Assembly (NCBI GenBank): GCA_039806925.1
Contig: JBDHQG010000001.1
Location: 1 to 42,652, forward strand
Direction of reading: 5' to 3'
Origin: Limisphaerales bacterium
GTDB lineage: Bacteria > Verrucomicrobiota > Verrucomicrobiia > Limisphaerales > JADJPG01
Length of the DNA stretch: 42,652 nucleotides
Shown: one piece after another, positions 2,478 through 34,536 of the stretch
Layout of the letters: each line of letters starts with the position of its first letter
Numbering within the stretch: the first letter of the stretch is position 1
Notes under the pieces: model-generated
Database searches by the model: none
The model's input: only the letters and a program-made list of their open reading frames with translations
What the model was told of the DNA's origin: nothing
Position numbers and translations under genes: made by a program

Positions 2478-5165
2478 ATGGAGGTCGTCATTGGCCTCTA
2501 CGCGTTCTTCTTCGCCTCATTCCATGGCATTGCGGATTCCATCTTCGTCAGCGTCGGCTCGAACCTGCTGGAGCAACGCGGGCTGCTGCTCGCGCTCAAG
2601 GGCGCGCTGGCGGTCGGACTGTTGATCATCCCCACCGTGCTCATGGGCGGCACGCTGCCGCTGATTGCGACGTGGCTGCAAAAGAGCTCCATCGAGGCCG
2701 GACGCCGTTCCGCGCGCTTCTACTCCGTGAACAGCCTTGGCGCGGTCTTCGGCTCCGCGGTCGCCGGATTCTATCTCGTGCAAAACCTCGGCCTCGTCGC
2801 CTCGCTCCAGGCCGCGGCTTTGATCAACCTCCTCATCGGCGGCATCGCGATGGGACTCGGCGGGCTGGAGCCGGAAGTTTCGCCCACGGCTGCGAATGCT
2901 CCCGCAAGAAGCGAGGCCGACCCGCAGATTTCTGACGCCACCTTGCGCTGGGCGGGATTGCTCGTCGCCATCACCGGCGGCGTCTCGATGGGCCTCGAAG
3001 TGCTCGCCGCGCGTTCGCTCGCGCTGCTGTTCGGCTCCAGCCTGCAAGCCTTTGCCATCGTGCTGATGGCCTTCATCCTCGGCATCGGCCTCGGTGCCGG
3101 CATGATCGCTTCACCACGCTGGAAACTTTGGCGCAGCGAACCGCTCGTCGTCTGCCTGCTGCTTGGCGCGGCCGCCTGGGTCGGCCTGCTCGTCCTCAAG
3201 ATCGAATGGTGGATCGAGATCTATCGCTACACCAAGTCCGGCCTCAACCAGAGCACCGTCGGCTACACCTACCATCAACTGCTCACCGCGGCGATCTCCA
3301 TGTTCGTCCTCGGCGTTCCCGCCGCGATGCTCGGCGCGGTCCTGCCGCTGCTGATCCGGGCGTTGTCCGGCCGGGCCGCCGCGCTCGGCATGAAGGTCGG
3401 CCAGCTCCTCACCTGGAACACGCTCGGCGCGGTCGTGGGAGTGTTGCTGACCGGCTTCGTGTTCATGCCCGCCGCGGGCCTGCGCAATTCCTTTGGCCTG
3501 CTGGCGTGCGTGCTCTGCGCGGTCGCGGCGCTCACCGCGTGGCGCGAAAAACTCGCGAAAGGACTCGGCGCCGCCGGCGGCGTGGCGGTGCTGCTCGCGC
3601 TGCTGTTCGCCTTTGAAGGCGACGGCTGGCGGCATGTGATGAGCTCCGGCGCGTTCCGGAAGCACGAACGCGAACCGGACTTCTCCATCATGGAGGAGCG
3701 CAAGCAGAAGATTCAGATCCTGTTCTACGAGGATGCGGCGGATGCGACCGTCTCCGTCGAGAAGGGCAGGAGCAGATGGGGCGATTTCGACGAATACGGC
3801 CTTCGCATCAATGGCAAGGCCGACGCATCGTCCTTTGGCGATCTCAGCACCCAGAAGTTGATCGGCCACCTTCCTTTCCTCGCGCGGCCCGGCGCGAAAG
3901 ATGTCTTCGTGCTGGGGCTCGGCAGCGGCATCACCGGCGGCTCCGTGCTGACGCATCCCGTCGAGCGTCTCGTGGTGGCCGAGAACTGCGAACCCGTCGT
4001 CCGCGCCGCGAAGTTCTTCGAGCCGTGGAACCGCGGCGTGCTCACCGACAAGCGGACCACCATCGAGATCGAAGATGCGCGCACGGCGCTGAAGCTCAGC
4101 CCGCGGCAGTACGACGTCATCATCACGCAGCCTTCCAATCCGTGGATGGCCGGCGTCGGCAGCGTGTTCAGCAAGGAATACTACGAGCTGGCGGCCAGCC
4201 GGCTGAAGGACGGCGGCATCATGGTGCAATGGTTTCAGGTTTACGAAATGCACGACGGCATTGTGGGCCTGGTGCTCCGCACCTTCGGCCACACCTTTCC
4301 GCACCTGGAGATCTGGGACACGGGCGCCGGCGACATCGTGCTGATCGGCTCGCGCACGCCCTGGGCCTCCACGTTGAAGGACTGGGATCGCATCTTTGAA
4401 CGCCCGACCGTGAAGGAGGATCTGGCCCTGATCGGCATCCATTCCGTGGCCCAGCTTGCCGCGCGTCAATTCGCCTCGCAACGCACCGCGTTCGCCATCG
4501 CGGGCGAGGGGCCGACCCAGAGCGATCTCTTCCCGGTGCTGGAATATCAGGCTCCGCTGGCGCGTTACCTGGGCATCACCGCGCAGACGATCTCGCGTTT
4601 CGACGAGCGGACGCACCAACGCCATCTCGCGTCCCCGGAACGCGTCGCCGCGCTCAACGCGCTCTCCACCGACCAGCTCGCGCAGACCTTCGGCACCTTC
4701 TGGACGTTCAACGAGGAGCTGCAAAAGCACATCCTCTGGCGCCTGAGTTACGAAACGTTGCCCGGCGCCGCCGAGCCCGTCGAAGTGCGCGCGATGCCGT
4801 GCGTGTTCCGCTCCACCAACACGCCGGCGCTGCCGCCGCAGTTGATGTCCCGCGTGCCCGAAGTCTCCCGGAAGATCGTGGCGGCGGCGATGTTGCTGAG
4901 AGGTTCTTCCGCGCAGCGCATGCAGGGCGCCGATGCGGTGGAAACGCTGATCCGTGAACGGCAGCCCGATGCGGACTGGTCGTCCGCGCGGCTCGCCGTG
5001 CAGGCCACGCGCACGACGTGGGGACTGGTGGAGCCGGCCAGGACTCGTTCGCTCATCCAGCTCGGGCTCGAACGGGAGCCGGGCAACGCCGAGCTGCAAT
5101 ACTTCGCACGCATTCTCCAACGCGAGAAACCGTCCGTGGGCGGCCTCTCTGCCGTCGACAAATAG
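2478..5165 (+). CDS. Fused polytopic-membrane/spermidine-synthase-like protein (main body; continuation of 2244..2459 across a TAG)
   Basis: 895-aa ORF with multiple hydrophobic helices. A class-I methyltransferase/spermidine-synthase core follows (VFVLGLGSGITGG, YDVIITQPSNPW), then a long C-terminal extension. The six codons between the TAG and the ATG at 2478 (LKAYGL) read on as the conserved YG.LE..IG helix. Confidence 0.85.
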   Translation: MEVVIGLYAFFFASFHGIADSIFVSVGSNLLEQRGLLLALKGALAVGLLIIPTVLMGGTLPLIATWLQKSSIEAGRRSARFYSVNSLGAVFGSAVAGFYLVQNLGLVASLQAAALINLLIGGIAMGLGGLEPEVSPTAANAPARSEADPQISDATLRWAGLLVAITGGVSMGLEVLAARSLALLFGSSLQAFAIVLMAFILGIGLGAGMIASPRWKLWRSEPLVVCLLLGAAAWVGLLVLKIEWWIEIYRYTKSGLNQSTVGYTYHQLLTAAISMFVLGVPAAMLGAVLPLLIRALSGRAAALGMKVGQLLTWNTLGAVVGVLLTGFVFMPAAGLRNSFGLLACVLCAVAALTAWREKLAKGLGAAGGVAVLLALLFAFEGDGWRHVMSSGAFRKHEREPDFSIMEERKQKIQILFYEDAADATVSVEKGRSRWGDFDEYGLRINGKADASSFGDLSTQKLIGHLPFLARPGAKDVFVLGLGSGITGGSVLTHPVERLVVAENCEPVVRAAKFFEPWNRGVLTDKRTTIEIEDARTALKLSPRQYDVIITQPSNPWMAGVGSVFSKEYYELAASRLKDGGIMVQWFQVYEMHDGIVGLVLRTFGHTFPHLEIWDTGAGDIVLIGSRTPWASTLKDWDRIFERPTVKEDLALIGIHSVAQLAARQFASQRTAFAIAGEGPTQSDLFPVLEYQAPLARYLGITAQTISRFDERTHQRHLASPERVAALNALSTDQLAQTFGTFWTFNEELQKHILWRLSYETLPGAAEPVEVRAMPCVFRSTNTPALPPQLMSRVPEVSRKIVAAAMLLRGSSAQRMQGADAVETLIRERQPDADWSSARLAVQATRTTWGLVEPARTRSLIQLGLEREPGNAELQYFARILQREKPSVGGLSAVDK

Positions 5166-19415: not shown

Positions 19416-21293
19416 TCAGTTCGCCGGAATCACGCGGGAGAAGCAGGCCGTGCCGTCCTTGCGCACGATCACCTCCTGTCCGGCGACCACGAAATCGAGG
19501 AGTAGCTCGCCGGCTTTCGGAGAGTCACTGTCGAACTCGACCTTGCCGCGCGTGCCGCCGGGGACGGTGACAACGTTGAGGGTGGCGCGGACCACGCCGC
19601 CGACCACAAGTTCATAGGAGCCGACATTGACGTCCTCGACTTCAACTTCGAAATCTTCGTCGCCGTTGTCCTTGCGGCGGAACTTCGCCACCGCAGAGGC
19701 ATTCGAGTCCGCGCCGGTGCTGATGAGCGGGAGCTTGATCTCCGCTGGTTGGGCGACGTTGCCGGAGCTCGAGCCGGAGCCGCCGGTGTTTCCAGAGCCG
19801 CCGCCCGGCGCCGAACCATTGCCAAACAGGTGGGAGAAGATCATGTCGCCAGTGGCATTCTTGATCTCGATGAGCTGGCCGCGCGGCTCGAAGTTCATCG
19901 GGAGCTCGCCTTTCGGATTGTCATCGCCGTGCGAGAACTCGATCTCGCCTTCCACGCCACCGACCACCGCCACGGCGTTGATGGTGCCGCGAAGCACGCC
20001 GCCGATGTAGAGCTTGTAGGCGCCGGCGGGCACGTCTTCGATTTCCACGCTGAACTTGCGACGGCCGTTGTCGCGAATCTCGAACTTCGCATCGCCGGAC
20101 GCACCGGGAATCACGCCGGTCTTCGCAAGGTTCTCCTCCAGCTGCGTCGGGGCTTCCGGCGTGACTGGCCCGCCGCTGTTGTTGCCTCCGGTATTGCCGC
20201 CCGTGGAACCGCCCGAGCCGATGACGCCCTCGAAGTAAACCGTGCCATCCTTGCGGATGACAATGCTGGCGCCGGCGGGATCGAACGTCAGCGGCAGTTC
20301 GCCGTCGGGATGATCATCGCCCGCGTTGAATTCGATTTCGCCCTCGGTGCCGCCCGTGGTCGCCACCACGTTGATGGTGCCGACCACGTTGCCGGCGACG
20401 AGGAGTTCATACGCGCCCACGGGCACGTCCTCGATCTCGACGGAGAAGTCCTTGCGGGCGTTCTCACGGATGCGGAGCCTGGCCTTCGCGGTGGCGTTGT
20501 CGTCCGTGCCGGTGGACGGGATGCTGAAGCTCTGGATGCTCGGCGTGGCGACGTTCACATTCTGCGCCTTCGCCAGCAACGTGCCGGTGGCGCGGATGGC
20601 GCCGGCCTGCATCACATCGATGACCTGGCCGCGCGGGTCGAAGTCGAGCAGCAATTCGTTCTTCTTCGGCTCGGTGGAGAACTCGATCCTTGCCTCGCGT
20701 CCGCTCGTGCGCAGATCGCCGCGCTTCACGCCGTTGACGTAGAGCTCGTAGCCCGTGCCGGAGATGCGTTCCACCTGCACCTTGAATTCGCGTTCGCCTT
20801 TCTTGCTCGCGCGATACTCGGCCTTGCCCTTGATGGCGTCGCTGGAGTTCGTCGGCGCGAGGACTACACGTTCATTGACGACGATGCCGGAGGGTTCGCC
20901 GGCACCGGAGATGACGCCTTGCAGGACGGGGGCGATGCCGTCGTGGATTTGGAGCATCTGCCCGCGGGGATCGAAATCGAGCGGGTTCGAGGACGACCTG
21001 GTTTTGAAGGAGAGCCGGCCGCCGCCCTTCTTGTCGGTCGAGAACTCGCCCTCCACCACGCCGCCGATCTGGACAGCGTAGGTCTTGTTCGCGTCGAGCC
21101 TGGACACGATGACGCCGAAGATGGAGCTGGAGGATTTGAGGGAGGAAACAACGCGGCCGGTTGCGTCGGGATCCACCCCGGTGTTTTGCAGGACCAGAGT
21201 GATGGCGGAGGATTCGGAAGCACCGGCGAGAGCCGGCGCGACGAGCATGGCCGCCATCGGCAACGTCCACAGGGTTGAGCTTGGTTTCTTCAT
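19416..21293 (-). CDS. Secreted protein built from five tandem ~120-aa beta-rich repeats (unknown domain family)
   Basis: Signal peptide is MKKPSSTLWTLPMAAMLVAPALAGA. The repeat pattern is A.F.....G...F.VEVEDV..G.Y.L.V.G...G.I.V....G..GEIEF.......L.L.FDPRG..I.I. Gly/Ser/Asn-rich linkers separate the repeats. A sigma-54 promoter lies upstream. Confidence 0.85.
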   Translation of the reverse strand: MKKPSSTLWTLPMAAMLVAPALAGASESSAITLVLQNTGVDPDATGRVVSSLKSSSSIFGVIVSRLDANKTYAVQIGGVVEGEFSTDKKGGGRLSFKTRSSSNPLDFDPRGQMLQIHDGIAPVLQGVISGAGEPSGIVVNERVVLAPTNSSDAIKGKAEYRASKKGEREFKVQVERISGTGYELYVNGVKRGDLRTSGREARIEFSTEPKKNELLLDFDPRGQVIDVMQAGAIRATGTLLAKAQNVNVATPSIQSFSIPSTGTDDNATAKARLRIRENARKDFSVEIEDVPVGAYELLVAGNVVGTINVVATTGGTEGEIEFNAGDDHPDGELPLTFDPAGASIVIRKDGTVYFEGVIGSGGSTGGNTGGNNSGGPVTPEAPTQLEENLAKTGVIPGASGDAKFEIRDNGRRKFSVEIEDVPAGAYKLYIGGVLRGTINAVAVVGGVEGEIEFSHGDDNPKGELPMNFEPRGQLIEIKNATGDMIFSHLFGNGSAPGGGSGNTGGSGSSSGNVAQPAEIKLPLISTGADSNASAVAKFRRKDNGDEDFEVEVEDVNVGSYELVVGGVVRATLNVVTVPGGTRGKVEFDSDSPKAGELLLDFVVAGQEVIVRKDGTACFSRVIPAN

Positions 21294-21439: not shown

Positions 21440-21455
21440 GTTCCGCAGGTGGAAT
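21440..21455. promoter_or_regulatory. Candidate enhancer (UAS) half-perfect palindrome gTTCC-N6-GGAAt
   Basis: gttccgcaggtggaat, 33 bp (about 3 helical turns) from the perfect site at 21473. It is about 85 bp upstream of the inferred minus-strand TSS. Confidence 0.5.
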
Positions 21456-21472
21456 GAGGAGTCGACGCGGGT

Positions 21473-21488
21473 GTTCCGGTGGTGGAAC
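21473..21488. promoter_or_regulatory. Candidate enhancer (UAS) perfect palindrome GTTCC-N6-GGAAC
   Basis: gttccggtggtggaac, about 118 bp upstream of the inferred minus-strand TSS. Confidence 0.62.
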
Positions 21489-21579
21489 GGACAGGCCGCC
21501 GCGGAACAATCAACGGGCCGGGTTTGAGGCGGACAATGAACGAGGATTAGTTTGGAACAGAATCTGCGCGACGATATAC

Positions 21580-23031
21580 ATGATGACGTTGACGATGAAT
21601 GCCGGCTCACAACGAACGAATTCCGCTGCGGCGTTCTCCTGCCTGATGGTGGAGGACGATCCCGCCTTCGCCACCCTGGTCGCGCAGCTCGTGCGCGAGG
21701 AGGGCGGCCAGCCGACTCATTGCAAAAGCATCGCGGAGGCGCGGGCGGCCACCGCGCAACGCCAGTTCGATCTGGTGCTGCTCGACAATCATCTCCCCGA
21801 CGGCAAGGCCTACGATTTCTTTGACCAGATCAGCCGCCGCAACCCCGAGGCGCCGGTCATCATGATCACCGGCCTGCCGGCGTTGGATGAAGCCATCTCG
21901 CTCACGCGAAACGGCCTCTTCGATTATCTCACCAAGCCGGTCGATGCCGACGCCCTGGCCGCCTGCCTGCAACGCGCCCGGGCGCGCCTGGCGCAGCGCG
22001 CCTCCCATGCGGAGGCGGCCGAATGTTTTGGCACCTCGCCGGCGATGCGGCATTTCCTCGACGAAGTGGGGAAGGCGGCGCGGCATCCCTCAGCGACGGT
22101 GCTGTTCACCGGCGAAAGCGGTGCCGGCAAGGACATCGCGGCGCGCACGTTGCACCGGCTCACTTACGGTGAAAAGGCCGCACAGGCGCCTTACGTCGCC
22201 GTCAATGCGGCGGCGGTTCCGGCGGACATGTTCGAGGCCGAGCTCTTCGGCGCGGAACGCGGCGCCTACACCGGCGCGGACAAGAAACGCCCCGGCCTCG
22301 TGGCCGCGGCGCAGGGCGGCACGCTGTTCCTCGATGAAATCGCCGAGGTGCCGCTCCCGCTTCAGGCCAAGCTCCTGCGTTTTTTGGAAGGGCGCGAGTT
22401 TCGTCCGCTGGGCAGCATCGTCAACGAGACGTTCACCGGCCGCTTCGTGACGGCGACCAACAAGTCGCTCCGCGCGGAGGTCCAGGCCGGGCGATTCCGC
22501 GAGGATTTGCTCTACCGCATCGAGGTGTTCGCGCTGGAAGTGCCGCCGTTGCGGAAGCGTCGCGAGGACATTCCGGGTCTGTGCGAATTCCTGCTCGCGC
22601 AGCTGGCGAAGAAATATGGCCGGTCCGCGCCGCTGCTGAAGTCCGATGACCTCGTGGCGTTGCAGGGCTATGATTTTCCAGGGAACGTCCGCGAGTTGAG
22701 AAACATCCTCGAACGCGGACTGCTGCGGACGGAGGAGAAGGATCGCTGGCTGGCGCTCGACACGACGTGGTGGCGCGCGGGCATTGCATCGGCGGCTCCT
22801 GCGGCGACGACGGTCGCATCACCCGCCCCGGCCGACGATGTCCCGCTGCCTCCGGAGCGCGCCGGTCTGACGCCGCTGGAGGCGCAGGAGTACCGCCTGA
22901 TCCGGCGCGGCATGATGGAAGCCCGCGGCGGCATCCGTCGCGCGGCGTCGAAGCTGGGCCTTTCTCCCCAAGCCTTGCTGCGTCGTCTGGAGAAGTGGCC
23001 GGAGCTTCGACCGCCTGCTGCGACGGGTTGA
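21580..23031 (+). CDS. Sigma-54-dependent response regulator (NtrC family: receiver + AAA+ + Fis-type HTH)
   Basis: Receiver domain: MVEDDP ... DLVLLDNHLPDG ... TKP. AAA+ domain: Walker A GESGAGKD, the GAFTGA variant GAYTGA, Walker B LFLDEI and NVRELRN. The C-terminal HTH is IRRAASKLGLSPQALLRRL. ATGs at 21580, 21583 and 21595 are possible; the 165-codon upstream extension is rejected. Confidence 0.93.
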   Translation: MMTLTMNAGSQRTNSAAAFSCLMVEDDPAFATLVAQLVREEGGQPTHCKSIAEARAATAQRQFDLVLLDNHLPDGKAYDFFDQISRRNPEAPVIMITGLPALDEAISLTRNGLFDYLTKPVDADALAACLQRARARLAQRASHAEAAECFGTSPAMRHFLDEVGKAARHPSATVLFTGESGAGKDIAARTLHRLTYGEKAAQAPYVAVNAAAVPADMFEAELFGAERGAYTGADKKRPGLVAAAQGGTLFLDEIAEVPLPLQAKLLRFLEGREFRPLGSIVNETFTGRFVTATNKSLRAEVQAGRFREDLLYRIEVFALEVPPLRKRREDIPGLCEFLLAQLAKKYGRSAPLLKSDDLVALQGYDFPGNVRELRNILERGLLRTEEKDRWLALDTTWWRAGIASAAPAATTVASPAPADDVPLPPERAGLTPLEAQEYRLIRRGMMEARGGIRRAASKLGLSPQALLRRLEKWPELRPPAATG

Positions 23032-23035
23032 GATT

Positions 23036-23051
23036 GTTCCGCATCCGGAAC
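23036..23051. promoter_or_regulatory. Candidate enhancer (UAS) perfect palindrome GTTCC-N6-GGAAC
   Basis: gttccgcatccggaac, beginning 5 nt after the activator stop codon and about 76 bp upstream of the -24 element at 23112. Confidence 0.65.
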
Positions 23052-23054
23052 AGT

Positions 23055-23070
23055 GTTCCGGCGCAGGAAC
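23055..23070. promoter_or_regulatory. Candidate enhancer (UAS) perfect palindrome GTTCC-N6-GGAAC
   Basis: gttccggcgcaggaac, 19 bp centre-to-centre from the previous site. An extra GTTCC half-site follows at 23071-23075. Confidence 0.65.
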
Positions 23071-23111
23071 GTTCCATCCGGTTTTCTCCCGCAATGGCCT
23101 GCAAATCGTCG

Positions 23112-23127
23112 TGGCACCGGCGCTGCT
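23112..23127 (+). promoter_or_regulatory. Sigma-54 (-24/-12) promoter for the Ig-domain protein gene
   Basis: TGGCACcggcgCTGCT has an exact -24 TGGCAC, correct spacing and a -12 TGC. It implies a ~300-nt leader containing a repeat hairpin. Confidence 0.75.
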
Positions 23128-23282
23128 TAAGTCGTTCGGAAACGCGACATGCCGGCTGGATTGAGTTACCTTCCGGCGCGTATTTCGTGCAGATGAACCA
23201 TCACAACACCATTGGCCGCGTCACCCTCGCTCCATAACACGCATGGAACCGGGAAGAACATCTACTAAAAGCAGCTTCAACA

Positions 23283-23357
23283 TTCGTAGCCGCCGAGGTG
23301 ACGAGGCGGAGCGGCCTGAGACTCCCAATGGTTCCGCCTCCTCACCTCGGCGGCTAT
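23283..23357. repeat. Family-1 hairpin repeat (TTCGTAGCCGCCG...CGGCGGCTA), copy 1
   Basis: ~24-bp stem tagccgccgaggtgacgaggcgga / tccgcctcctcacctcggcggcta with one mismatch and a 22-nt loop. It lies inside the 5' leader of the 23435 gene. Confidence 0.8.
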
Positions 23358-23434
23358 GTTCAGAACGGAATTGTGAAACCCGTTCCAGGACCGGCGACAC
23401 ACTGATTCGCCGGACGACCGCAGCGCGGTGTTGC

Positions 23435-25147
23435 ATGTGGATTGCGGGCCTGGCGCTGGCGGGCCTGTGGTCCGCCCAGGCGGCGTCGCCGGAACTGACC
23501 GACAATTTCGCCGACCGCCAGCTGCTCACCGATGATTCCGGGCGGATCGACGGCAGCAATGCCGGGGCGACGCGCGAACCGGGCGAGCCCCGGCACGGCG
23601 GCAAGCCGGGCGGACGTTCCGTGTGGGTTTCTTGGCTCGCGCCGGCGGACGGCATCGCCACGTTCTGGACGGATGGCAGCGCCTTCGACACGTTGCTCTC
23701 CGGTTACTACTTCAGCTCCACCAACGACACGACGTTCGACAAGCTGCGCGAAGCGGACCGCAATGACGACGTCTCCGTCGCGGCGGCGCCCTCGAGCTTG
23801 ATCCAGTTCGGCGCGCACGCGGGCGTGCGTTACCACATCGCGGTGGACGGCTTCGCGGGCGCGGCGGGCGACATCCGCCTGCGCTGGGATTTTGTGAACG
23901 CCACCTCGCCGCCGCCGGTGATCGTCCGCGTGCCGGAGGATCAAGCGGCCCGCGAAGGCGATCCCGTCACGCTGGCGGTGGACATGCAGACCTCGCCGAA
24001 TCTGCGGCTGCAATGGCGCTTCAACGGCAATTCGTTCGGTGCGACCGGCCCCACGCTCCTCATCCCCGCGCTGCAATTCACGAACATCGGCCGCTACACG
24101 CTGCGGATCGACCTGGGCGATGTGCGCTTCGAGACCAGGCCCGTCGAGCTGCAAATCAACTCCGACGGCCAGACCAACGCGCTGGCGCAGGACAAGATTC
24201 TCGACGCGTTGAACTCGCCGCTCACGCCGGACGACGGCGGCGGCGGCCTGCGTGCCGCCGGTGCGATGGTGTTCACCGCCGCCGGCGTCGGAGTTTCGCG
24301 CGGCTACAACGGCTCGCAGGTGTTCAACACCACTTACGCCACGGCGGACCCGACGGAACCGGCCCACTGCGGCCTGAACGGCAGCGCCTCCTACTGGTAT
24401 GCCTATCAGCCGCCCGCCGACGGCACGCTAGTGCTCGACACCATCGGCAGCGGCTTCGACACGTTCATCGCGGTTTACACCTTCAACCCTCCATTCACAG
24501 GCTACGCGGATCTCATCCCGCTGACCTGCGATGACAACAGCGCGGGCACGAACGGCGCGGCCTGGCTGGAATTCGCCGCGCCCAGGAACAGACAGTTCCT
24601 TGTCGTGCTCGACGGCATCAATGGCGCGCGCGGCATCGCGCGGTTGAACTACCGCCTCGACACCAACCGCCCGCCCGTCGCCCCGACGCTGGTGCAAGTT
24701 CCCGCCGCCGGCACCGCGGCCACCGGGCTGAACATCACGCTGGCCCCGGCGGTGACGGGCAGCCCGCCGCTGCGCTTCCTCTGGCGCAAGGGCACCCATC
24801 TGCTGGCCGGCGCGACGAACAGTTTTCTGGCGTTGAACAACCTCACGCCGGCCGAGTCCGGCGATTATCGCGTGACGGTTTTCAGCCACGTCGGCCTGCC
24901 GCTGGAAGTGCTCCTGCCGCTCCGCGTTGTGATTCCACCACAGCTTCAATTCGCGCCGCGGACTGATGGGATGAGGGCGTGGTCCTTCCCCGGCGTCGCC
25001 GGGCAACGCTACGTCGTGGAGCAGACCGCCGCGCTGGGAAGCCCGTGGCGTCCATGGACGAACCAATTCATCGGTGACGGATCGCTCATCCTGCTGACGA
25101 ACGACGCGGCAACGCCGGCCACCTTCCTGCGCGTGCGCGTCGAATAG
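23435..25147 (+). CDS. Secreted protein: two pre-peptidase-C-terminal-like modules alternating with two Ig-like modules
   Basis: The ATG at 23435 gives the signal peptide MWIAGLALAGLWSAQA. Two modules carry the motif ..EP.H.G....S.W..W.AP.DG......GS.FDT....Y (GEPRHGGKPGGRSVWVSWLAPADG...FDTLLSGYYF and EPAHCGLNGSASYWYAYQPPADG...FDTFIAVYTF). The two Ig-like modules are PVTLAVDM...LRLQWRFNG and LRFLWRKG...ESGDYRV. The protein ends in FLRVRVE. Confidence 0.8.
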   Translation: MWIAGLALAGLWSAQAASPELTDNFADRQLLTDDSGRIDGSNAGATREPGEPRHGGKPGGRSVWVSWLAPADGIATFWTDGSAFDTLLSGYYFSSTNDTTFDKLREADRNDDVSVAAAPSSLIQFGAHAGVRYHIAVDGFAGAAGDIRLRWDFVNATSPPPVIVRVPEDQAAREGDPVTLAVDMQTSPNLRLQWRFNGNSFGATGPTLLIPALQFTNIGRYTLRIDLGDVRFETRPVELQINSDGQTNALAQDKILDALNSPLTPDDGGGGLRAAGAMVFTAAGVGVSRGYNGSQVFNTTYATADPTEPAHCGLNGSASYWYAYQPPADGTLVLDTIGSGFDTFIAVYTFNPPFTGYADLIPLTCDDNSAGTNGAAWLEFAAPRNRQFLVVLDGINGARGIARLNYRLDTNRPPVAPTLVQVPAAGTAATGLNITLAPAVTGSPPLRFLWRKGTHLLAGATNSFLALNNLTPAESGDYRVTVFSHVGLPLEVLLPLRVVIPPQLQFAPRTDGMRAWSFPGVAGQRYVVEQTAALGSPWRPWTNQFIGDGSLILLTNDAATPATFLRVRVE

Positions 25148-25171
25148 CCGGTGTGTCCGAGCGCGGCGCTT

Positions 25172-25220
25172 ATGCTGTCCGGGAATTCGAGCGGAAGCTT
25201 GTCCCGAAGGGACGGTTGAA
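25172..25220 (-). repeat. Family-2 structured repeat, internally deleted copy (minus orientation)
   Basis: atgctgtccgggaattcgagcggaagcttgtcccgaagggacggttga matches the two ends of copy 31505-31616. The segment between the two GTCCC..GGGAC hairpins is missing. Confidence 0.6.
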
Positions 25221-25243
25221 ACGGTGGTGGCGCGATTCTTCCG

Positions 25244-25360
25244 TCAGCCGTCCCTTCGGGACTCAGCCCGCCTACCGCTTTATTCCCGGCGTTGAAACGC
25301 CGGGCTATTTTCACCAGTCCCTTCCGGGACGCATCTCTCGGGCGAATTGCCGGAAGGCAT
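25244..25360 (+). repeat. Family-2 structured repeat (~115 nt, three hairpins), plus orientation
   Basis: The three hairpins are GTCCC-TTCG-GGAC, CCCGGCG-TTGAAA-CGCCGGG followed by CTATTTT, and GTCCC-TTCC-GGGAC. The element ends ...CGAATTGCC..GCAT. It aligns with 31630-31742 and with the reverse complement of 31505-31616. Confidence 0.8.
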
Positions 25361-25388
25361 CAGACTTTAGCCTGGATATTTCACAGGC

Positions 25389-25468
25389 TTCGTAGCCGCC
25401 GCGGTAACGAGACGGACTGCCGGCCGTGGAATCCCAAAGCCATCCGCCTCCTCGCGTCGGCGGCTACA
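25389..25468. repeat. Family-1 hairpin repeat, copy 2
   Basis: cttcgtagccgccg ... cggcggctac. The left flank atttcacaggcttcgtagccgcc is shared exactly with copy 3 at 31371. Confidence 0.75.
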
Positions 25469-25529
25469 ACATCCAACCGCCTCATTCGTGTTGGTTCGTG
25501 TCCATTCGCAGTTGCATCAGCGCTTCCCT

Positions 25530-25581
25530 AAAAAATAAAACCGGGCGCTGGAGGACACACAGAATTTCATCCAACGCCCGG
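25530..25581 (-). terminator. Orphan intrinsic terminator oriented on the minus strand
   Basis: 12-bp stem ccgggcgctgga (25541-25552) with tccaacgcccgg (25570-25581), one G-U position. On the minus strand it is followed by ttttatttttt (25540-25530). No credible minus-strand CDS lies upstream of it. Confidence 0.5.
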
Positions 25582-25689
25582 CTTCGCCCACACGGGCGAA
25601 GAGTTTGTCGATGAGGTTGGAGGCAGGCCGCGTGCCAGCATCGCATTGCCCGCCGTGGCTCCCGGTTCCGCGCCTTGTTCCGCGCCGCC

Positions 25690-25705
25690 GCTTCCGGCAG
25701 CGGAG
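25690..25705. promoter_or_regulatory. Degenerate UAS-like site cTTCC-N6-GGAGc
   Basis: cttccggcagcggagc, 20 bp centre-to-centre from the perfect site at 25710. It is preceded by two direct GTTCCGCGCC half-sites (25664-25673, 25676-25685). Confidence 0.35.
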
Positions 25706-25709
25706 CAGC

Positions 25710-25725
25710 TGTTCCGCGAGCGGAA
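25710..25725. promoter_or_regulatory. Candidate enhancer (UAS) perfect palindrome GTTCC-N6-GGAAC
   Basis: gttccgcgagcggaac, 55-70 bp upstream of the -24 element at 25780. Confidence 0.62.
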
Positions 25726-25779
25726 CAGCGCCCGCGCGGGCCACCATGAAAACTCCCGGATTTCCGCGTAAAACCACGT

Positions 25780-25795
25780 TGGCAAAGCCGCTGCT
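25780..25795 (+). promoter_or_regulatory. Sigma-54 (-24/-12) promoter for the 4-repeat protein gene
   Basis: TGGCAAagccgCTGCT has correct GG-N10-GC spacing and the same CTGCT -12 element as the promoter at 23112. It is about 80 nt upstream of ATG 25875. Confidence 0.7.
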
Positions 25796-25874: not shown

Positions 25875-27644
25875 ATGAAACCAAACCTCGCCAACCTGGC
25901 CGTGGCTGCCGTCCTGGCCCTCGGCGGCATCTCCGGTGCCGCCGGACGGGAAATCGAAATCCGGCGCGCGACTGAAATCGAAATCGAAACCGAGCACGGC
26001 CGTTACTACCAGCTCCAGCGTTCCACCAATATGGTCGACTGGCAGAACGTCGACGACGCCATCTACGGTCACGGCGGAACAGAGCGGCGCCTGCGCTCGG
26101 CCCGTCCCGACGACAATCCGGGCCGCGAATATTTCCGCGTCGTGATCACGGACGCTCCGACGAACGGCTTCGCGCCCTGGTCGCTCGCGGGTATCACCAT
26201 GGAGTTCGACGACGAACCCGGTGGCGACGTGATGAAGTTCCTGCTCGCGACATCGGGCGTGGACGTTTCCGAAGCGGACTCGGATCCGTTCACCTACACC
26301 TACGCGCGCACCGGCGACAGCGAGGCAAAGGCCGATCTGGTTTACGCCTCGAACAAGATCGACCGGCTGACCTTCGCGTTCACCGGTCCCGGCGTGGGCA
26401 CCTGGTCGCGCGACGAATTTCGCGACGGCAGGCTGAAGGATCACGATGCCGGTCCGTTTCGCATCGTCGGCATTGCCGCTGCGCCGGGCATCAACGCCGC
26501 GGTGAACCCCAACGTCATCATCGCCCCGCCGGTGGCTCCGCCCGCGCCGCCGGCATCGCTGTCCAACCTGGTTTATTACTTCCAGTCCTCCGGCGTACCG
26601 GATCGCTACGATTTTCTGGATGATCGCAACGGGCGCGAAGTCCAGGGCGTGGTGCAGGAAGGTCTGCCGACCAACTCGCTGGTGTACGCCTACAACATCC
26701 TCAACGCGAACACGGCCTCGCTGGTGCTGAGCTTCGGCTACTACGGCATGGGCGGCGATCGCTACGAATGCGATCTGACGTTCACCGACGGCTCTCCCGG
26801 CCACTTCGTGCGCCGTCTCTATCGTCGCGGCGTGTTGAAAGACACCGACAGCGGCGCGTTCAGCCAGAACATGCAGCTCAACTCCGGCGGCGGCTACACG
26901 CCGCCCGCGGGCACGAACTCCCCGAGCCCCTGGCCCCCGGTGGTGACCCCCACCGCCCCGCCGGCTCCGCCCGCGTCGTTGAACGGCCTGACCTACTATG
27001 TCTACACCGCGCAGTATCCGGATCAGTATCGTTTCGTCGCCGGCCACTACGGCTATGCGATGCCTGGCGCGTCAGCGGATTCGGAACTGGAAGTGACCGA
27101 AGGCGGCAACGTTTACATGTATACCTACACGAACCACACCTCGAACACCGCCACGCTGGTCATCACCTACGGCTACTACAACCTCGGCGGCGACCGCGAG
27201 GAATACGACCTCACCTACGTGGACGGCTCCACGGCGACGTTCAACCGCCGCCTCTACCGCGGTGGCACGATTTACACGAACCAGGCCGGCATCTTCAGCA
27301 CGAACTCGGTCCTGCCCTACGCCTACAATCCCGGCGGCTCCACGAACAATCCGCCTGGCGACTACGACTTCGCCATGAGCACCGGCGAGTTTCTGAAATT
27401 CAACAACGCCACGGCGGGCGTGCAGACGGACGACAGCAACCCGACCGACTTCACCTACGTGCTGACCTCGACCGGCCCGGGCACCGCCACGCTCCGCGTC
27501 CAGTTCAAGGCCGACAAGTGGGACGAATACGATCTCACCTACGCCAGCGCGACAAGCGGCTCGTTCCTCCGGCGCCAGTATGATCGAAACGAGCTGAAGG
27601 ACACCGACACCGGCACCTTCACCGCCAAAGCCCCGGCCCAGTGA
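25875..27644 (+). CDS. Secreted protein: small N-terminal beta-sandwich-like module plus four ~110-130-aa repeats (unknown family)
   Basis: The ATG at 25875 gives the signal peptide MKPNLANLAVAAVLALGGISGAAG. The N-terminal module runs YYQLQRSTNMVDW...REYFRVV. The four repeats share F.Y.Y......TA.L.V.......DEYDLT(Y/F).....G.F.RR.Y..G.LKDTD.G.F. PPAPPAS linkers separate them. Confidence 0.82.
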   Translation: MKPNLANLAVAAVLALGGISGAAGREIEIRRATEIEIETEHGRYYQLQRSTNMVDWQNVDDAIYGHGGTERRLRSARPDDNPGREYFRVVITDAPTNGFAPWSLAGITMEFDDEPGGDVMKFLLATSGVDVSEADSDPFTYTYARTGDSEAKADLVYASNKIDRLTFAFTGPGVGTWSRDEFRDGRLKDHDAGPFRIVGIAAAPGINAAVNPNVIIAPPVAPPAPPASLSNLVYYFQSSGVPDRYDFLDDRNGREVQGVVQEGLPTNSLVYAYNILNANTASLVLSFGYYGMGGDRYECDLTFTDGSPGHFVRRLYRRGVLKDTDSGAFSQNMQLNSGGGYTPPAGTNSPSPWPPVVTPTAPPAPPASLNGLTYYVYTAQYPDQYRFVAGHYGYAMPGASADSELEVTEGGNVYMYTYTNHTSNTATLVITYGYYNLGGDREEYDLTYVDGSTATFNRRLYRGGTIYTNQAGIFSTNSVLPYAYNPGGSTNNPPGDYDFAMSTGEFLKFNNATAGVQTDDSNPTDFTYVLTSTGPGTATLRVQFKADKWDEYDLTYASATSGSFLRRQYDRNELKDTDTGTFTAKAPAQ

Positions 27645-30800: not shown

Positions 30801-31364
30801 GAAACCGAGTGGCTCCACTCGGACGGCGACCGGACGATCGGCGTGACCACGGGCGTATTGCCGACGCCGTTCGCGGGCGCGGTGAGCAGCACGCGGCAGA
30901 AGCTGGAGTTCCGCGAGCGCAACGTCTCGGCCTACGCCGCGCAGTTGCTGGGCGATGGCTTCTCAATCGGGGCGCGCTATCGACTGAGTGAGGCCCAGCT
31001 GGAAACACGTTTGCCGGAACTGCCGAACACGACAATCGATCTCGACCTCGCGGAGCAGAGCGAACGTTCGCTGCTGCATCAGGTCGCGCTGTCGTTGAAC
31101 TACCAGCACACGAGCGGCTTCTTCGGCCAATGGGAATCGGCGTGGTATTACCAGCACAACTCCGGCTACACGCCGGCGCGTCCGGGCGATGATTTCTTCC
31201 AGCACAACGTCTGGCTTGGCTACCGCTTCCCGCGCCGGCACGCGGAGATTCGCGCGGGCCTCTTGAATCTGGCGGACACGGATTACCGGTTGAACCCGCT
31301 CAATTCCTACAACGCCCTGCCGCGCGGCCGCACCGCCGTGGTGAGCCTGCGGTTGAATTTCTAG
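27897..31364 (+). CDS. Large envelope protein: signal peptide + FecR domain + TPR repeats + C-terminal outer-membrane beta-barrel-like domain
   Basis: The GTG at 27897 gives VRRTSLAILLLLLIGMAAPAQS. FecR-like block: AVQFSDRSVLRLSESTTLEI ... ETPVVSGAIRGTEFLL ... LALLDGAVEL. TPR-like block: ALRSFDDAIAIDAALGNAWLGRGLALLRLGERDEALRSFQTAAALEPR ... The last ~570 aa have alternating beta-strand patterns ending in VVSLRLNF (terminal Phe). ATG 27723 is the alternative, less likely start. Confidence 0.85.
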   Translation: MRRTSLAILLLLLIGMAAPAQSTDTNTPASRVVEVAGNVEFQVSGRAEWSAATNGLALKPGDRLRTRTQSRAAVQFSDRSVLRLSESTTLEIQPPRHAEKRRFRLPFGSIFFFNRERPADVEFETPVVSGAIRGTEFLLEAAEANGATRLALLDGAVELSAADATVSMHSGEQARVEPGQAPVKSPLLEARSLIQWALYYPAVANPDDLALARDDLPALNEALSAYRSGDLLKAHDLLRAVPPGNPARELFRAAVELSVGAVDSAEARLAGAPANASVARALRELIAVVRGTTLTNELAEPGPSASEWLARSYTLQSRFQLHAARETAERAVALAPNFGFALARLAELQMMLEERAAAAATVRDALRVSPRLASAHALLGFLRLEENDPKSALRSFDDAIAIDAALGNAWLGRGLALLRLGERDEALRSFQTAAALEPRRAVMRGYLAKAFSAAGETKLAEKDLRLAKELDPGDPTAWLYSALHQWQQNYPNVAVRELERSTELNDNRRLFRSRLGLDRDRSVRSANLAAVYADAGLQEVSLRSAARAVNEDYANFSSHLFLANSYQALENPNRFDLRYESARFSELLVANLLAPAGAGNLSQLLSQQEHLQFFDPRPVGVSTFTQYRSSGDWQQLATLFGSLDGFSYALDTAYHNQHGQEINDWSERLDVSLQMKQHVNERDDLYFQASFSNGDAGDVSRHYDPNEASRVRRVSEEQAPNLFAGWHRAWSPANHTLLLVSRLTDSFELRDDGVGVFHLQPDVANATRISTPAGGFGARLNSDFMLYSAELQQIWQSEAHTVVAGGRIQSGEVESDSVLTRTLTGVISSDQTDEPLRRANGYLYYHWQTLEPLQLIGGFSYDHLTYPRNSDFLPLAAGDESTDLLAPKAGFVLAPWRGGTVRGAYTRSLGGLFFDNSVRLEPTQVAGFNQAFRSLIPESSAGLLPGATFDTANLSYDQRVGSGTFFGVETEWLHSDGDRTIGVTTGVLPTPFAGAVSSTRQKLEFRERNVSAYAAQLLGDGFSIGARYRLSEAQLETRLPELPNTTIDLDLAEQSERSLLHQVALSLNYQHTSGFFGQWESAWYYQHNSGYTPARPGDDFFQHNVWLGYRFPRRHAEIRAGLLNLADTDYRLNPLNSYNALPRGRTAVVSLRLNF

Positions 31365-31381: not shown

Positions 31382-31455
31382 TTCGTAGCCGCCGACGCGC
31401 GGAGGCGGATGGACTGGGCGGTAATGAAATTCCGCCTCCTCACGTCGGCGGCTAC
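31382..31455. repeat. Family-1 hairpin repeat, copy 3
   Basis: ttcgtagccgccgacgcgcggaggcgga ... tccgcctcctcacgtcggcggctac. It is flanked by the inverted pair atttcacagg (31371) / ccgtgaaat (31480s). Confidence 0.78.
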
Positions 31456-31504
31456 AAAGGGTCGCGAATTCATGCGGGCCGTGAAATATCCCAGTATAGG
31501 ACTA

Positions 31505-31616
31505 ATGCCGTTCAGGAATTCGAGCGCGTTCGTCCCGGAGGGACAGCGTGAGAATAGCCCGGCGTTTCAACGCCGGGAACGAAGCCGAAGGCCGAAAGTC
31601 CCGAAGGGACGGCTGA
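31505..31616 (-). repeat. Family-2 structured repeat, minus orientation
   Basis: Its reverse complement aligns block-by-block with 25244-25360 (GTCCCTTCGGGAC, CCCGGCGTTGAAACGCCGGGCTATT, GTCCCTCCGGGAC, CGAATTCC, GCAT). Confidence 0.8.
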
Positions 31617-31629
31617 AGGGGTTGAAGGT

Positions 31630-31742
31630 TCAGTCGTCCCTTTGGGACTCGACCCTGCTGGTTCGTCCACCCAGCGTTGAAACGCTGGGCTATTTTTCGA
31701 TTGTCCCTCCGGGACACGCTCCGCCGAATTCCCGAAAAGCAT
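31630..31742 (+). repeat. Family-2 structured repeat, plus orientation; with 31505-31616 it forms a ~238-bp imperfect palindrome
   Basis: It has the same blocks, and the middle hairpin reads CCCAGCG-TTGAAA-CGCTGGG. That is a G-to-A change paired with a C-to-T change relative to the other copies (compensatory). Confidence 0.8.
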
Positions 31743-31781
31743 TGGAGCCAAGGCCCGCTCCACGCCCAGTTCAGACTCGTC

Positions 31782-31797
31782 CGGCGGGGAATCTGCT
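31782..31797 (+). promoter_or_regulatory. Weak sigma-54-like element upstream of the CHASE2 kinase gene
   Basis: cGGCGGggaatCTGCT has correct spacing and the CTGCT -12 box. The -24 box is poor, no GTTCC-N6-GGAAC site lies upstream, and it is only ~20 nt from the start codon. Confidence 0.2.
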
Positions 31798-31818
31798 GAT
31801 ATCGTGCTGACGAACCGA

Positions 31819-34536
31819 ATGTCGGACCGCCCTTCACGCCGCTCCAAGTTCATCGCCAGCGCCGCGCTGGGAATCCTTTGCGCGCTGGCCGGCTCGGCGC
31901 TGCTGGATTCCACCCGGCCCCGTGGTTCCGCCCTCACGCGGGCGAGCTATGACAGTTACTTCGGGCTGCTGGGATTGAACCACCCGCCTCCCACCAACAG
32001 CCCGGTGCTGGTGGTGTACCTCGATCTCGAATCGCACCTGAGCCAGCACCAGGATCCCAACCAGCCCTGGCCGCGGGAACTGTACGCGCAATTGATCCGG
32101 CGTTTGAAAGGCGCGGGCGCGCGCGTGGTCGTGTTCGATGTCGTCTTCGACAGCGTGGGCACCAATGCCGCGGGGAACCGTGCGTTGCGCGAGGCCATTG
32201 CCGCGCATGGCGGCGTCGTTCTCGCGGGTGAACTGCGCGCGTTGAGCAGCGACGGCGGGCGGGCGGAATGGGGACGCGCGGTGAAAGTCATCGCGCCGGT
32301 GGACGAGTTTCGTGGCGCCGCGGCCGGCTGGGGCCTGGGCGAGGTGGCGACGGATGACGACTTTGGAGTCCGCCGCTATTACACCGCAGCCGCGGTCTCC
32401 GGCGAACCAGTCTCGAACCTGACGCTGGCCGCCGCCCGGGTTTACGGGTCGGATGCTCCTTCGCCGGCTGGTGAGACGGCGCGCGCGCGCTGGCTGCATT
32501 ACTACGGCCCGCCGTTCGCATTGCCGCATCGCAGTTTCAGCCAGGTGCTCACCGCGGGTGACGTGAGCGACGCGGAGTTCCGCGACAGGATTGTCTTCGT
32601 CGGCGCGCGACCGGTGGCCGGATTGTTCAAGGAACGCCGCGACGAGTTCCGCAGCCCGTTCAGCTTCTGGAACGAGAAGGATCTGTTCATGCCGGGCGTC
32701 GAAGTTCATGCCACGGAGATGTTGAATCTCCTGCGCAACGACTGGCTGCGCCTGCCCGGAGAACGCCCGCTCGAACTGGCGTTCGGGCTGACGGGCTTGT
32801 TGCTCGGCGCCGGATTGATCTGGCTGCGACCGATTCCTGCAACGGCGTTCGCGGCGACGAGCGTCGGGCTGACGATTGCGACCGCTGCGATTCTCTTCCG
32901 CCAGTCCCACGTCTGGTTTCCGTGGCTCATCGTCGCGGCGGTTCAGGCTCCGCTGGCGCTGGGTGGTTCGGTGCTCTTCAACTCCATCGAATGGTATCTC
33001 ACGCGCCGTCGGCTCGAAGCCGCGAAACGCGTCGCCGACGCGCGCATCCGCGAGCAGGCGGCGTTGATCGAGAAGGCGCACGACGCGATTCTGGTGCGCG
33101 AGCTGGATGGGAAAACGTCCTACGCGAATCCCAGCGCCGAACGGCTCTTCGGCTGGACCGCGAGCGAGTTGCAGAACGGCGCGGTGAACGAGTTGTTCAC
33201 GGACGCGGCGGCCACTGAGGCCCGCCGTGTGGCGACGGAGCGCGGCGAGTGGAACGGCGAGTTGCGGCTTCGCGCGAAGTCCGGCGCCGGGCTGACGTTG
33301 GAGAGTCGCTGGACGTTGTTGCGCGATGATCTCGGCCAGCCGAAGGGATTGCTAATTATCAGCTCCGACGTGACGGAGAAGAAGCAGCTCGAAGCCGAGT
33401 CGCTGCGCATGCAACGCATGGAAGCGGTGGGCGCGCTGGCGGGCGGAATGGCGCATGACTTGAACAACGCGCTCGCGCCGATTCTCATGGGCACACAGCT
33501 CCTTCGTCGCGATTCGAAGGATGAAAACACCAAACGCGTGCTGTCGCTCATGGAATCGAGCACGCGGCGCGGCGCGGACATGGTGCGGCAGGTGTTGCTC
33601 TTCGCGCGTGGGAAGCAGGGCGAGTTCGAGCGGCTGGAGGCGCGACCGCTGGTGAAAGAGATGGAGAAGCTCGCGCGCGACACGTTTCCGCTGAACATCA
33701 AGGTCAGCGCGCATGTCGCGGACGATCTCTGGCCGGTGCGAGGCAACGCGACGCAATTGCATCAAGTGCTGTTGAACCTGTGCGTCAACGCGCGCGACGC
33801 GATGGTGGAAGGCGGTTCGCTGTCGATCGCGGCGGACAACGTGACGTTGGATGCGGAGGCGGCGCGGGCGATTCCGGACGGGCGGGCGGGAGAATTTGTC
33901 GTGCTCATGGTCACAGATACCGGCTCGGGAATGCCGCCCGGGGTGCGGGCGAAAGTTTTTGAACCATTCTTCACCACGAAGGCGGAAGGGAAGGGAACCG
34001 GACTCGGGCTTTCAACGAGCGCGCGCATCGTGAAGGCGCACGACGGTTTCATTTCCGTCCAAAGCCAGCCCGGCGAGGGCACGACGTTCGAGGTTTACCT
34101 TCCGCGTTTCTCGCGGGAGTTGGAGCCGAAGACAGAAGCTTCCGTCGAGGAACTTCAACGCGGGAGCGGTCAGCTTATCCTCGTTGCCGACGATGATGAA
34201 TCCGTGCGCGAACTGCTGCGCCGCAGCCTGGAGGAATACGGTTATCGCGCCGTCACGGCGGCGAACGGCGCGGAGGCGGTTTCGTTGTGCCGGGAAAGCC
34301 GGGAACCGGTCGCGCTGGTGGTGAGCGATCAATCGATGCCGTTGCTGGAAGGTTCAAAGGCGGTGGCGGCAATTCAGGCGGCTCGACCCGATCTGCCGGC
34401 GATCCTGTTGTGCGATGAACCGGCGATCATGAAACAACCCGGGGAGCTTCCGCCCGCCCGGGTCGAATATCTGCCGAAGCCGATCGAACTGCACCGGTTG
34501 CTGGAAACCGTTTCGCGGATGCTGAAGCAACGGTGA
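31819..34536 (+). CDS. Hybrid sensor histidine kinase: CHASE2 periplasmic sensor + TM helices + PAS + HisKA/HATPase + C-terminal receiver
   Basis: CHASE2-like N-terminal region (VVVYLDLES..., VVVFDVVFD, VVLAGEL) followed by 3-4 TM helices. PAS: IEKAHDAILVRELDGKTSYANPSAERLFGW. H-box: GGMAHDLNNAL. G-boxes: DTGSGM and GTGLGLS. Receiver: LILVADDDESVRELL ... LVVSDQSMP. The GTG at 31804 is an alternative start. Confidence 0.9.
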   Translation: MSDRPSRRSKFIASAALGILCALAGSALLDSTRPRGSALTRASYDSYFGLLGLNHPPPTNSPVLVVYLDLESHLSQHQDPNQPWPRELYAQLIRRLKGAGARVVVFDVVFDSVGTNAAGNRALREAIAAHGGVVLAGELRALSSDGGRAEWGRAVKVIAPVDEFRGAAAGWGLGEVATDDDFGVRRYYTAAAVSGEPVSNLTLAAARVYGSDAPSPAGETARARWLHYYGPPFALPHRSFSQVLTAGDVSDAEFRDRIVFVGARPVAGLFKERRDEFRSPFSFWNEKDLFMPGVEVHATEMLNLLRNDWLRLPGERPLELAFGLTGLLLGAGLIWLRPIPATAFAATSVGLTIATAAILFRQSHVWFPWLIVAAVQAPLALGGSVLFNSIEWYLTRRRLEAAKRVADARIREQAALIEKAHDAILVRELDGKTSYANPSAERLFGWTASELQNGAVNELFTDAAATEARRVATERGEWNGELRLRAKSGAGLTLESRWTLLRDDLGQPKGLLIISSDVTEKKQLEAESLRMQRMEAVGALAGGMAHDLNNALAPILMGTQLLRRDSKDENTKRVLSLMESSTRRGADMVRQVLLFARGKQGEFERLEARPLVKEMEKLARDTFPLNIKVSAHVADDLWPVRGNATQLHQVLLNLCVNARDAMVEGGSLSIAADNVTLDAEAARAIPDGRAGEFVVLMVTDTGSGMPPGVRAKVFEPFFTTKAEGKGTGLGLSTSARIVKAHDGFISVQSQPGEGTTFEVYLPRFSRELEPKTEASVEELQRGSGQLILVADDDESVRELLRRSLEEYGYRAVTAANGAEAVSLCRESREPVALVVSDQSMPLLEGSKAVAAIQAARPDLPAILLCDEPAIMKQPGELPPARVEYLPKPIELHRLLETVSRMLKQR

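Follow-up and report, generated by a model that had tools for sequence, protein, structure and literature searches.

The window analysed here is a stretch of 42,652 bp from Limisphaerales bacterium (contig JBDHQG010000001.1 of assembly GCA_039806925.1, positions 1 to 42,652), and the subject is a gene cluster built around an NtrC-type sigma-54 activator, together with a palindrome, GTTCC-N6-GGAAC, found between the genes of that cluster. A preliminary description of the sequence had taken this palindrome for the enhancer sites, and thus the binding motif, of the activator, an interpretation that the evidence below renders very probable. The genes on which the argument turns are the following; the remaining genes of the window are housekeeping and metabolic.

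19416-21293, minus strand: gene for UP625, a secreted protein of 625 aa, with coding-like GC content at third codon positions, the divergent member of the proposed regulon
21580-23031, plus strand: gene for the NtrC-type response regulator and sigma-54 activator (Pfam REC, Sigma54_activat, AAA_lid_14 and HTH_8)
23435-25147, plus strand: gene for a secreted Ig-domain protein (Pfam Ig_3); the open reading frame (ORF) opens at 23243 and the probable start is 23435 (MWIAGLALAGLW...)
25875-27644, plus strand: gene for U589, a secreted protein of 589 aa
27723-31364, plus strand: gene for a FecR-domain and TPR protein of 1213 aa (Pfam FecR, TPR)
31804-34536, plus strand: gene for a CHASE2-PAS-HisKA-HATPase-REC hybrid histidine kinase (Pfam)

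An exact search for the pattern (GTTCCNNNNNNGGAAC) returns four sites in the 42,652 bp and no others, as had been claimed from inspection by eye. All of them are intergenic and fall in the three intergenic regions around the activator gene, and dinucleotide-preserving shuffles of the window contain 0.07 sites on average, none of 100 reaching four. When one mismatch is allowed, eight sites are found for 1.85 expected, and the one-mismatch matches at 3404, 30908 and 32658 lie inside coding sequence. For comparison with relatives, a scan that kept one genome per species supplied about 27 orthologous or near-orthologous loci (L001-L027) in metagenome-assembled genomes (MAGs) of Verrucomicrobiota, with activators 48-82% identical to that of the window, and 53 loci of unrelated activators from the same scan served as controls. 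A further locus, L210, encodes an activator that is 85% identical. Across the orthologs the palindrome extends to the consensus YGTTCCG-N4-CGGAACR, and its occurrences in the window, as predicted upstream activating sequences (UAS), are these:

21440-21455: UAS site with one mismatch, GTTCCGCAGGTGGAAT, partner of the exact site at 21473
21473-21488: exact UAS site, GTTCCGGTGGTGGAAC, common to two divergent promoters
21500-21508: isolated half-site CGGAACA, invariant in the alignment of the window with L001
23036-23051: exact UAS site, GTTCCGCATCCGGAAC; in orthologs, too, a site stands right behind the activator stop codon
23055-23070: exact UAS site, GTTCCGGCGCAGGAAC, 19 bp from the site at 23036
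25665-25686: two direct half-sites, GTTCCGCGCC, 12 bp apart, read in the sequence; one of them matches TGTTCCG
25691-25706: degenerate partner site, CTTCCGGCAGCGGAGC, with two mismatches
25711-25726: exact UAS site, GTTCCGCGAGCGGAAC

The positions first reported for the sites beginning at 21473, 23036 and 23055 are accurate, and the fourth site had been placed one base too early, at 25710-25725. Likewise, one of the two near-perfect partners was correctly located at 21440-21455 and differs from the pattern at a single base, while the other, given as 25690-25705, is really at 25691-25706 and carries two mismatches. Within pairs, the reported spacings (19, 20 and 33 bp) are borne out and recur in the relatives, where tandem partners with up to two mismatches are displaced by +/-19-20 or 31-33 bp and, in one case, by +52, for 0.03 expected per offset. 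In particular, L001 and L210 also have a partner 32-33 bp upstream of their counterpart of the site at 21473, and a degenerate partner at exactly -20 bp of the site at 25711 is kept in L001, L002, L004, L017 and L210. The near-site at 30908 was considered as a fourth plus-strand module, before the kinase gene, given that it has the same spacer as the site at 25711 and that TGGAAACACGTTTGC follows 92 bp downstream. It was rejected as the product of chance plus coding constraint, because its bases code for F-R-E-R-N, a peptide that every ortholog of the FecR/TPR protein keeps, and no ortholog has the palindrome there.

Conservation ties the palindrome to the cluster. The window and the loci, orthologous or related, whose activators have a recognition helix of the Pro type defined below contain 35 exact copies in 367 kb, as against 4 in 898 kb of the control loci, and in the Pro-type set GTTCC ranks first among all 1024 possible 5-mer-N6 palindromes. 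About 20 of the Verrucomicrobiota MAGs have orthologous clusters with the palindrome in matching intergenic regions, in the conserved order [kinase]-activator-Ig protein-(U589)-FecR/TPR-[kinase], and in L210 the three-region architecture of the window is matched site for site. In the orthologs, sites are found behind the activator gene, in the gap that separates the Ig gene from the operon after it, and ahead of the kinase gene or of divergent genes. When the window proteins were mapped onto the loci, all exact sites but one proved to be in intergenic regions of the cluster. That single site (L012, 534-549) is outside recognised cluster genes, and it probably marks another regulon member because TGGCAAGGCCGATGCT is found 113.5 bp downstream of it, in phase with the promoters described next. 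In L006 (about 4440-4600), L008 (about 6880, minus strand) and L015 (about 4340, minus strand), the palindrome and a -24/-12 element stand before a glycosyltransferase-like gene (MRFLFYSHDGLGLGHTRRNLAIA...), and regulon content thus varies between genomes. As a separate matter, the cluster-bearing contigs L001, L006, L010, L011, L014, L015 and L027 are titled 'uncultured Bifidobacterium/Bifidobacteriaceae', which looks like mislabelled MAG taxonomy.

The sites face predicted sigma-54 promoters of the -24/-12 class on both strands:

21389-21374, minus strand: -24/-12 promoter, CGGCACGCGCCCTGCA, of the UP625 gene
21553-21568, plus strand: -24/-12 promoter, TGGAACAGAATCTGC / TGGAACAGAATCTGCG, before the activator gene
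23112-23127, plus strand: -24/-12 promoter, TGGCACCGGCGCTGC / TGGCACCGGCGCTGCT, of the Ig-domain protein gene; orthologous promoters were found
25637-25622, minus strand: candidate -24/-12 promoter, TGGCACGCGGCCTGCC
25780-25795, plus strand: -24/-12 promoter, TGGCAAAGCCGCTGC / TGGCAAAGCCGCTGCT, of the U589 and FecR/TPR operon

The palindrome had been described as confined to the regions upstream of three such promoters, and the three plus-strand elements stand as proposed. The count does not, since two minus-strand elements, of which that of UP625 had been missed, use the same sites. The UP625 promoter is 92.5 bp from the centre of the site at 21473 and the candidate at 25637 is 82.5 bp from the site at 25711; both distances are in phase with those of the other promoters, and the arrangement at 25637 is repeated in L004. 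On the sequence evidence, then, the sites are bidirectional and serve four or five predicted promoters, not three, and their dyad symmetry would let them work in both directions. The promoters themselves are conserved. That of the activator gene, the presence of which implies autoregulation, is kept in L001 (TGGAACGGGAATTGCG) and L210 at the same distance of 73.5 bp; that at 25780 is nearly identical in L001 and L002, and its distance of 62.5 bp is seen again in eight loci; in that of UP625, L001 and L210 preserve GGCACG and TGCA unchanged, but not the spacer. More generally, the alignments show invariant GG and TGC blocks around a variable spacer, and a TGGCA(A/G)-N5-YTGCT element follows 50-115 bp downstream in 29 of the 35 exact sites.

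The distances between the centre of a site and the GG of the -24 element are quantised, at about 50.5, 61.5, 72, 83, 93.5, 104 and 114 bp. At a period of 10.5 bp the Rayleigh statistic is R = 0.84, a value that none of 20,000 null sets reaches. The same period and phase were recovered in an independent set of 14 sites that includes a sister clade and a paralogous system (V-test p = 5e-6), and six minus-strand promoters are in the same phase as well (p = 0.003). Shared ancestry alone does not account for this signal, since the FecR/U589 promoter by itself, orthologous in the different genomes, is found in seven distance classes. Such strict phasing fits the short enhancer-promoter distances of 50-115 bp.

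The protein encoded at 21580-23031 is, by its predicted domains (REC, AAA+ and Fis-type helix-turn-helix (HTH)), a group I bacterial enhancer-binding protein. Its receiver domain (Pfam Response_reg, 68.7 bits) has the phospho-acceptor Asp and the conserved Thr and Lys expected of such domains, and all of 42 homologs share D69, T97 and K119. The AAA+ domain (Sigma54_activat, 1e-53) contains the Walker A motif GESGAGKD, the Walker B motif LFLDEI and the loop GAYTGA (228-233), a Phe-to-Tyr variant of GAFTGA, and the Walker and loop residues are invariant in the homolog alignment. At the C-terminus, a Fis-type HTH is recognised by HTH_8 with 23.5 bits for a cut-off of 22. In an AlphaFold2 (AF2) model built with the 42 homologs (mean pLDDT, the predicted local distance difference test score, 83.7), the C-terminal helices span residues 432-447, 452-459 and 463-472 with pLDDT of about 90, and the second and third of these (IRRAASKL and PQALLRRLEK) are predicted to form the HTH, Pro463 being the first residue of the recognition helix. 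Among solved structures, its nearest relatives are NtrC1 and NtrC4 of Aquifex. None of the NCBIfam equivalog cut-offs for named activators (NtrC, NtrX, AtoC, ZraR, GlrR, LuxO and others) is reached, the best being ntrC with 303.5 bits for a cut-off of 558.6, and the 42,652-bp window contains no second sigma-54 activator.

The strongest available argument that this adjacent activator is the likely binder comes from covariation between its recognition helix and the half-site. Activators that read xPQxLLRRL(E/Q)KW (Pro type) go with GTTCC palindromes and have no GGTCC, and those that read xHQxLLRRL(E/Q)KW go with GGTCC, with no cross-occurrence of GTTCC. Thus, in L020, L022, L023 and L024, in which the helix begins (S/T)HQ..., GGTCC-N6-GGACC occurs at 7 sites in 70 kb and is the top-ranked palindrome, and GTTCC is found 0 times. 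Two homolog searches supplied natural recombinants of the helix residues, of which contigs L201-L209 were analysed. Where the activator has His and Gln (L205-L207), the Ig gene is preceded by GGTCC-N6-GGACC, and activators with His and Glu (L201, L202, L208, L209) go with GGTCCG half-sites and GGTTCG-N4-CGGACC. The activators with Pro and Gln (L203, L204) adjoin a HAMP/PAS kinase gene and an extracytoplasmic function (ECF) sigma gene, not the FecR cluster, and tandem GTTCC-N6-GGAAC pairs are still present there before -24/-12 promoters. In these comparisons, position 2 of the half-site (T or G) tracks the first residue of the predicted recognition helix (Pro or His), and neither the Glu/Gln position nor gene context. 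In Fis and NtrC, residues at the start of the recognition helix (R85 and R456, respectively) contact DNA, and we take Pro463/His to be at the corresponding position. This equivalence leans on those contacts and on the AF2 helix boundaries; neither comparison of the C-terminal domain with PDB sequences nor BLASTP against the NtrC C-terminus yielded an alignment that would establish it.

The same observations bear on other explanations of the palindrome. A different dimeric transcription factor with its gene elsewhere in the genome, for instance a repressor or co-regulator, might use it as its operator, the adjacent activator binding some other sequence; the geometry would suit many helix-turn-helix dimers, and two of the sites are placed directly behind stop codons. 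Yet the half-site changes from T to G at position 2 exactly where the recognition helix of the adjacent activator changes from Pro to His, a paralogous activator with a Pro helix and other neighbours also has GTTCC palindromes before sigma-54 promoters, and no further conserved dyad was noticed in these regions. We consider another factor unlikely for these reasons.

Less likely by a clear step is a role in RNA, in which the palindromes would form short hairpins serving as terminators or processing sites behind the upstream genes, or that they are repeats resembling repetitive extragenic palindromic (REP) elements. Several sites do lie 5-40 bp behind a stop codon, and true hairpin repeats and terminator-like elements share the same intergenic regions; the stems, however, would be just 5-7 bp long with no T run, and the half-site stays invariant, with no compensatory change, between genomes whose activators share only 60% identity. 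Moreover, hairpins would explain neither the phasing of the sites with downstream promoters nor the sites upstream of divergent genes, where no transcript ends. That the four sites are a functionless cluster produced by chance or composition is hardly credible: the DNA is GC-rich and words such as CGGAAC/GTTCCG are moderately common in it (TGTTCCG occurs 19 times for 7.3 expected), but 0/100 shuffles reach four sites, and the retention of the sites at the same positions in more than 20 genomes, as well as the phasing, contradicts it.

In all likelihood, therefore, the NtrC-type regulator encoded at 21580-23031 has YGTTCCG-N4-CGGAACR for its upstream activating sequence, as the sites themselves, their conservation, their promoters, the phasing, the tandem geometry and the covariation jointly indicate. 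This agrees with the central claim of the preliminary description. Some observations pull the other way. The predicted transcript start of the activator gene, at about 21579, is about 1-4 nt before the annotated start codon, an arrangement kept in L001 and L210, so that the activator's own promoter would yield a leaderless or nearly leaderless mRNA. The -24/-12 pattern is not enriched in the GC-rich window, with 16 matches at a score >=9 for about 25 in shuffles, and the support for these elements comes from conservation and phasing instead. The exact site is absent in L007, L014, L016 and L021, where the contig is short or the target genes are elsewhere. The Pro/His split largely follows clades, which means that the number of independent switches is small. 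Finally, the window has no rpoN, so that we infer, and do not read directly, the presence of sigma-54 in this genome.

The mechanism that would follow from assigning the palindrome to the activator presupposes binding, activation, a partnership with the kinase and a signal. The regulator would receive a phosphate, in all probability from the CHASE2 hybrid kinase encoded in the cluster, and its dimers would then bind the tandem palindromes, two or three helical turns apart, through the Fis-type HTH. Once bound, the dimers would form the AAA+ ring on a single DNA face and, by short-range looping, this ring would contact and open the sigma-54 polymerase at a -24/-12 promoter 50-115 bp away. The targets in the window would be the activator's own promoter, the divergent gene at 19416-21293, the Ig-protein gene, the operon of U589 and the FecR/TPR protein and, possibly, a small RNA. 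The kinase is the probable cognate sensor, a partnership suggested by gene order, as in most orthologs its gene is directly upstream of that of the activator. The FecR/TPR protein, kept in nearly all orthologous clusters, is unusually large for a FecR-domain protein, and its C-terminus, which gives a weak match to TonB_dep_Rec_b-barrel, is barrel-like and ends ...LNF. These features suggest an outer-membrane FecR fusion that would partner the CHASE2 kinase. By analogy, the occurrence of FecR-domain proteins beside CHASE2 kinases in other phyla (PMC5192318) suggests that it may act as a co-sensor, in which case the regulon would contain its own signalling parts and be subject to positive feedback.

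The other predicted targets are less readily classified. UP625 matches no Pfam family at threshold; its orthologs in L001 and L210 have the same divergent arrangement, and in L002 a homolog is found behind the activator gene with a site of its own and a near-identical promoter at 93.5 bp. U589, with orthologs in L001, L002, L017, L022 and L210, matches no Pfam or NCBIfam family, and an exact-sequence look-up found no record of it; no significant homology was detected between UP625 and U589. The Ig-domain gene adjoins the activator gene in most orthologous loci. The ORF at 31409-31810 is probably not a gene.

Downstream of the candidate minus-strand promoter at 25637 lies a possible non-coding target:

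25520-25612, minus strand: candidate small RNA of about 90 nt, with two hairpins followed by a T run, UUUUAUUUUUU (fold -40.2 kcal/mol, z = -3.8)

L004 (15395-15535, minus strand) shares the promoter and its distance from the site, and there a homologous two-hairpin element follows, which is absent from L001, L002 and L210. A metagenome scan for the core of the small RNA, GAAGC-N0-1-CGGGCGTTGG, gave only chance matches among the matches listed, and with no further copies from that scan the evidence for the small RNA is the window and L004. It may thus be regarded as a lineage-restricted candidate.

The same regions contain repeats that are distinct from the palindrome. A hairpin repeat of about 75 nt (TTCGTAGCCGCCG...CGGCGGCTAC) is present in three copies on the plus strand (23283-23365, 25389-25470 and 31382-31458), all in one orientation and in non-coding parts of the regulon; one copy is within the long 5' leader of the Ig-protein gene, and the arms of the repeat differ by paired changes. 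Behind the Ig gene, and again behind the FecR/TPR gene, stands a composite repeat some 190 bp long (25150-25345 and 31495-31735, plus strand). It includes matches to the Rfam family Acido-Lenti-1 (RF01687) at 31670-31716 (37.6 bits) and 25285-25331 (31.9 bits), for a gathering score of 37, both of which also score as intrinsic terminators. The RF01687 'sRNA' motif may here be the 3'-end element of a mobile repeat.

Three of the above readings can be linked into one, in which a specificity switch, a trans-envelope signalling regulon and a divergent small RNA belong together. Replacement of Pro by His would reprogram position 2 of the half-site from T (GTTCC) to G (GGTCC); an outer-membrane FecR/TPR barrel would signal through the CHASE2 kinase to the sigma-54 activator and so replace the FecA/FecR/ECF-sigma route; and, in some lineages, a divergent small RNA under sigma-54 control would be a further output of the shared enhancer. 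As a whole, this combination is speculative and, in our view, rather doubtful.

The searchable literature yielded no prior description of the motif, the activator family, the regulon or the Pro/His-T/G relation. The finding does not alter the understanding of sigma-54 activation. For an uncharacterised sigma-54 activator with a wide distribution among the uncultured Verrucomicrobiota of soil and fresh water, it yields a testable predicted motif and a local regulon, and it supplies candidate reporter promoters for a CHASE2/FecR sensing system. It also offers a clean natural case of 10.5-bp enhancer-promoter phasing, as well as a testable specificity change of one residue and one base (Pro463/His, T/G).

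Among known systems, the NtrC (NRI) enhancer at glnAp2 of enteric bacteria combines tandem dyads upstream of a -24/-12 promoter with oligomerisation, DNA looping and autoregulation. The predicted system resembles it in having a regulator with REC, AAA+ and Fis-type HTH domains, tandem dyads upstream of -24/-12 promoters and, as the sequence indicates, autoregulation. The NtrC site is TGCACC-N5-GGTGCA, whereas that described here is GTTCC-N6-GGAAC, and the ntrC equivalog score is below its cut-off. The predicted targets differ as well, being genes for secreted and envelope proteins and not nitrogen genes, and the kinase is a CHASE2 hybrid, not NtrB. The UAS of NifA, TGT-N10-ACA, and the TyrR box, TGTAAA-N6-TTTACA, are likewise dyad sites of activators of the sigma-54 family with HTH_8 domains, and the function of the NifA UAS depends on the face of the helix. 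The extended site described here, TGTTCC-N6-GGAACA, shares the 6+6+6 geometry of the TyrR box, but its half-site differs in sequence and the TGT/ACA spacing is N12 here and N10 in NifA. Unlike NifA and TyrR, the activator is without GAF or ACT/PAS sensor domains.

The architecture is thus textbook (NtrC, NifA), and the type of inference has already been made for Desulfovibrio (PMC4641369). In the activator regulons of Desulfovibrio vulgaris, about 100 nt or less separates most sites from the promoter, a single UAS is common to divergent operons, and some of the assignments were checked by electrophoretic mobility shift assay (PMC4641369). The motif described here is similarly conserved beside orthologous activator genes and sigma-54 promoters, but the phylum, the activator family and the motif are different, and the present system is known from sequence alone. 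For the signalling side, the closest parallel is the 'BiofilmReg' operon of Burkholderia, which encodes a FecR-domain envelope protein, a CHASE2-PAS histidine kinase and a response regulator; the signals recognised by CHASE2 domains are unknown, according to the Pfam-derived description given there (PMC5192318). In both cases, a FecR-domain protein, a CHASE2-PAS kinase and a regulator are encoded together. The regulator of BiofilmReg is of the OmpR/CreB type and its FecR protein has LysM (PMC5192318), whereas the cluster described here pairs a predicted sigma-54 activator with a FecR protein that has TPR and a barrel-like C-terminus.

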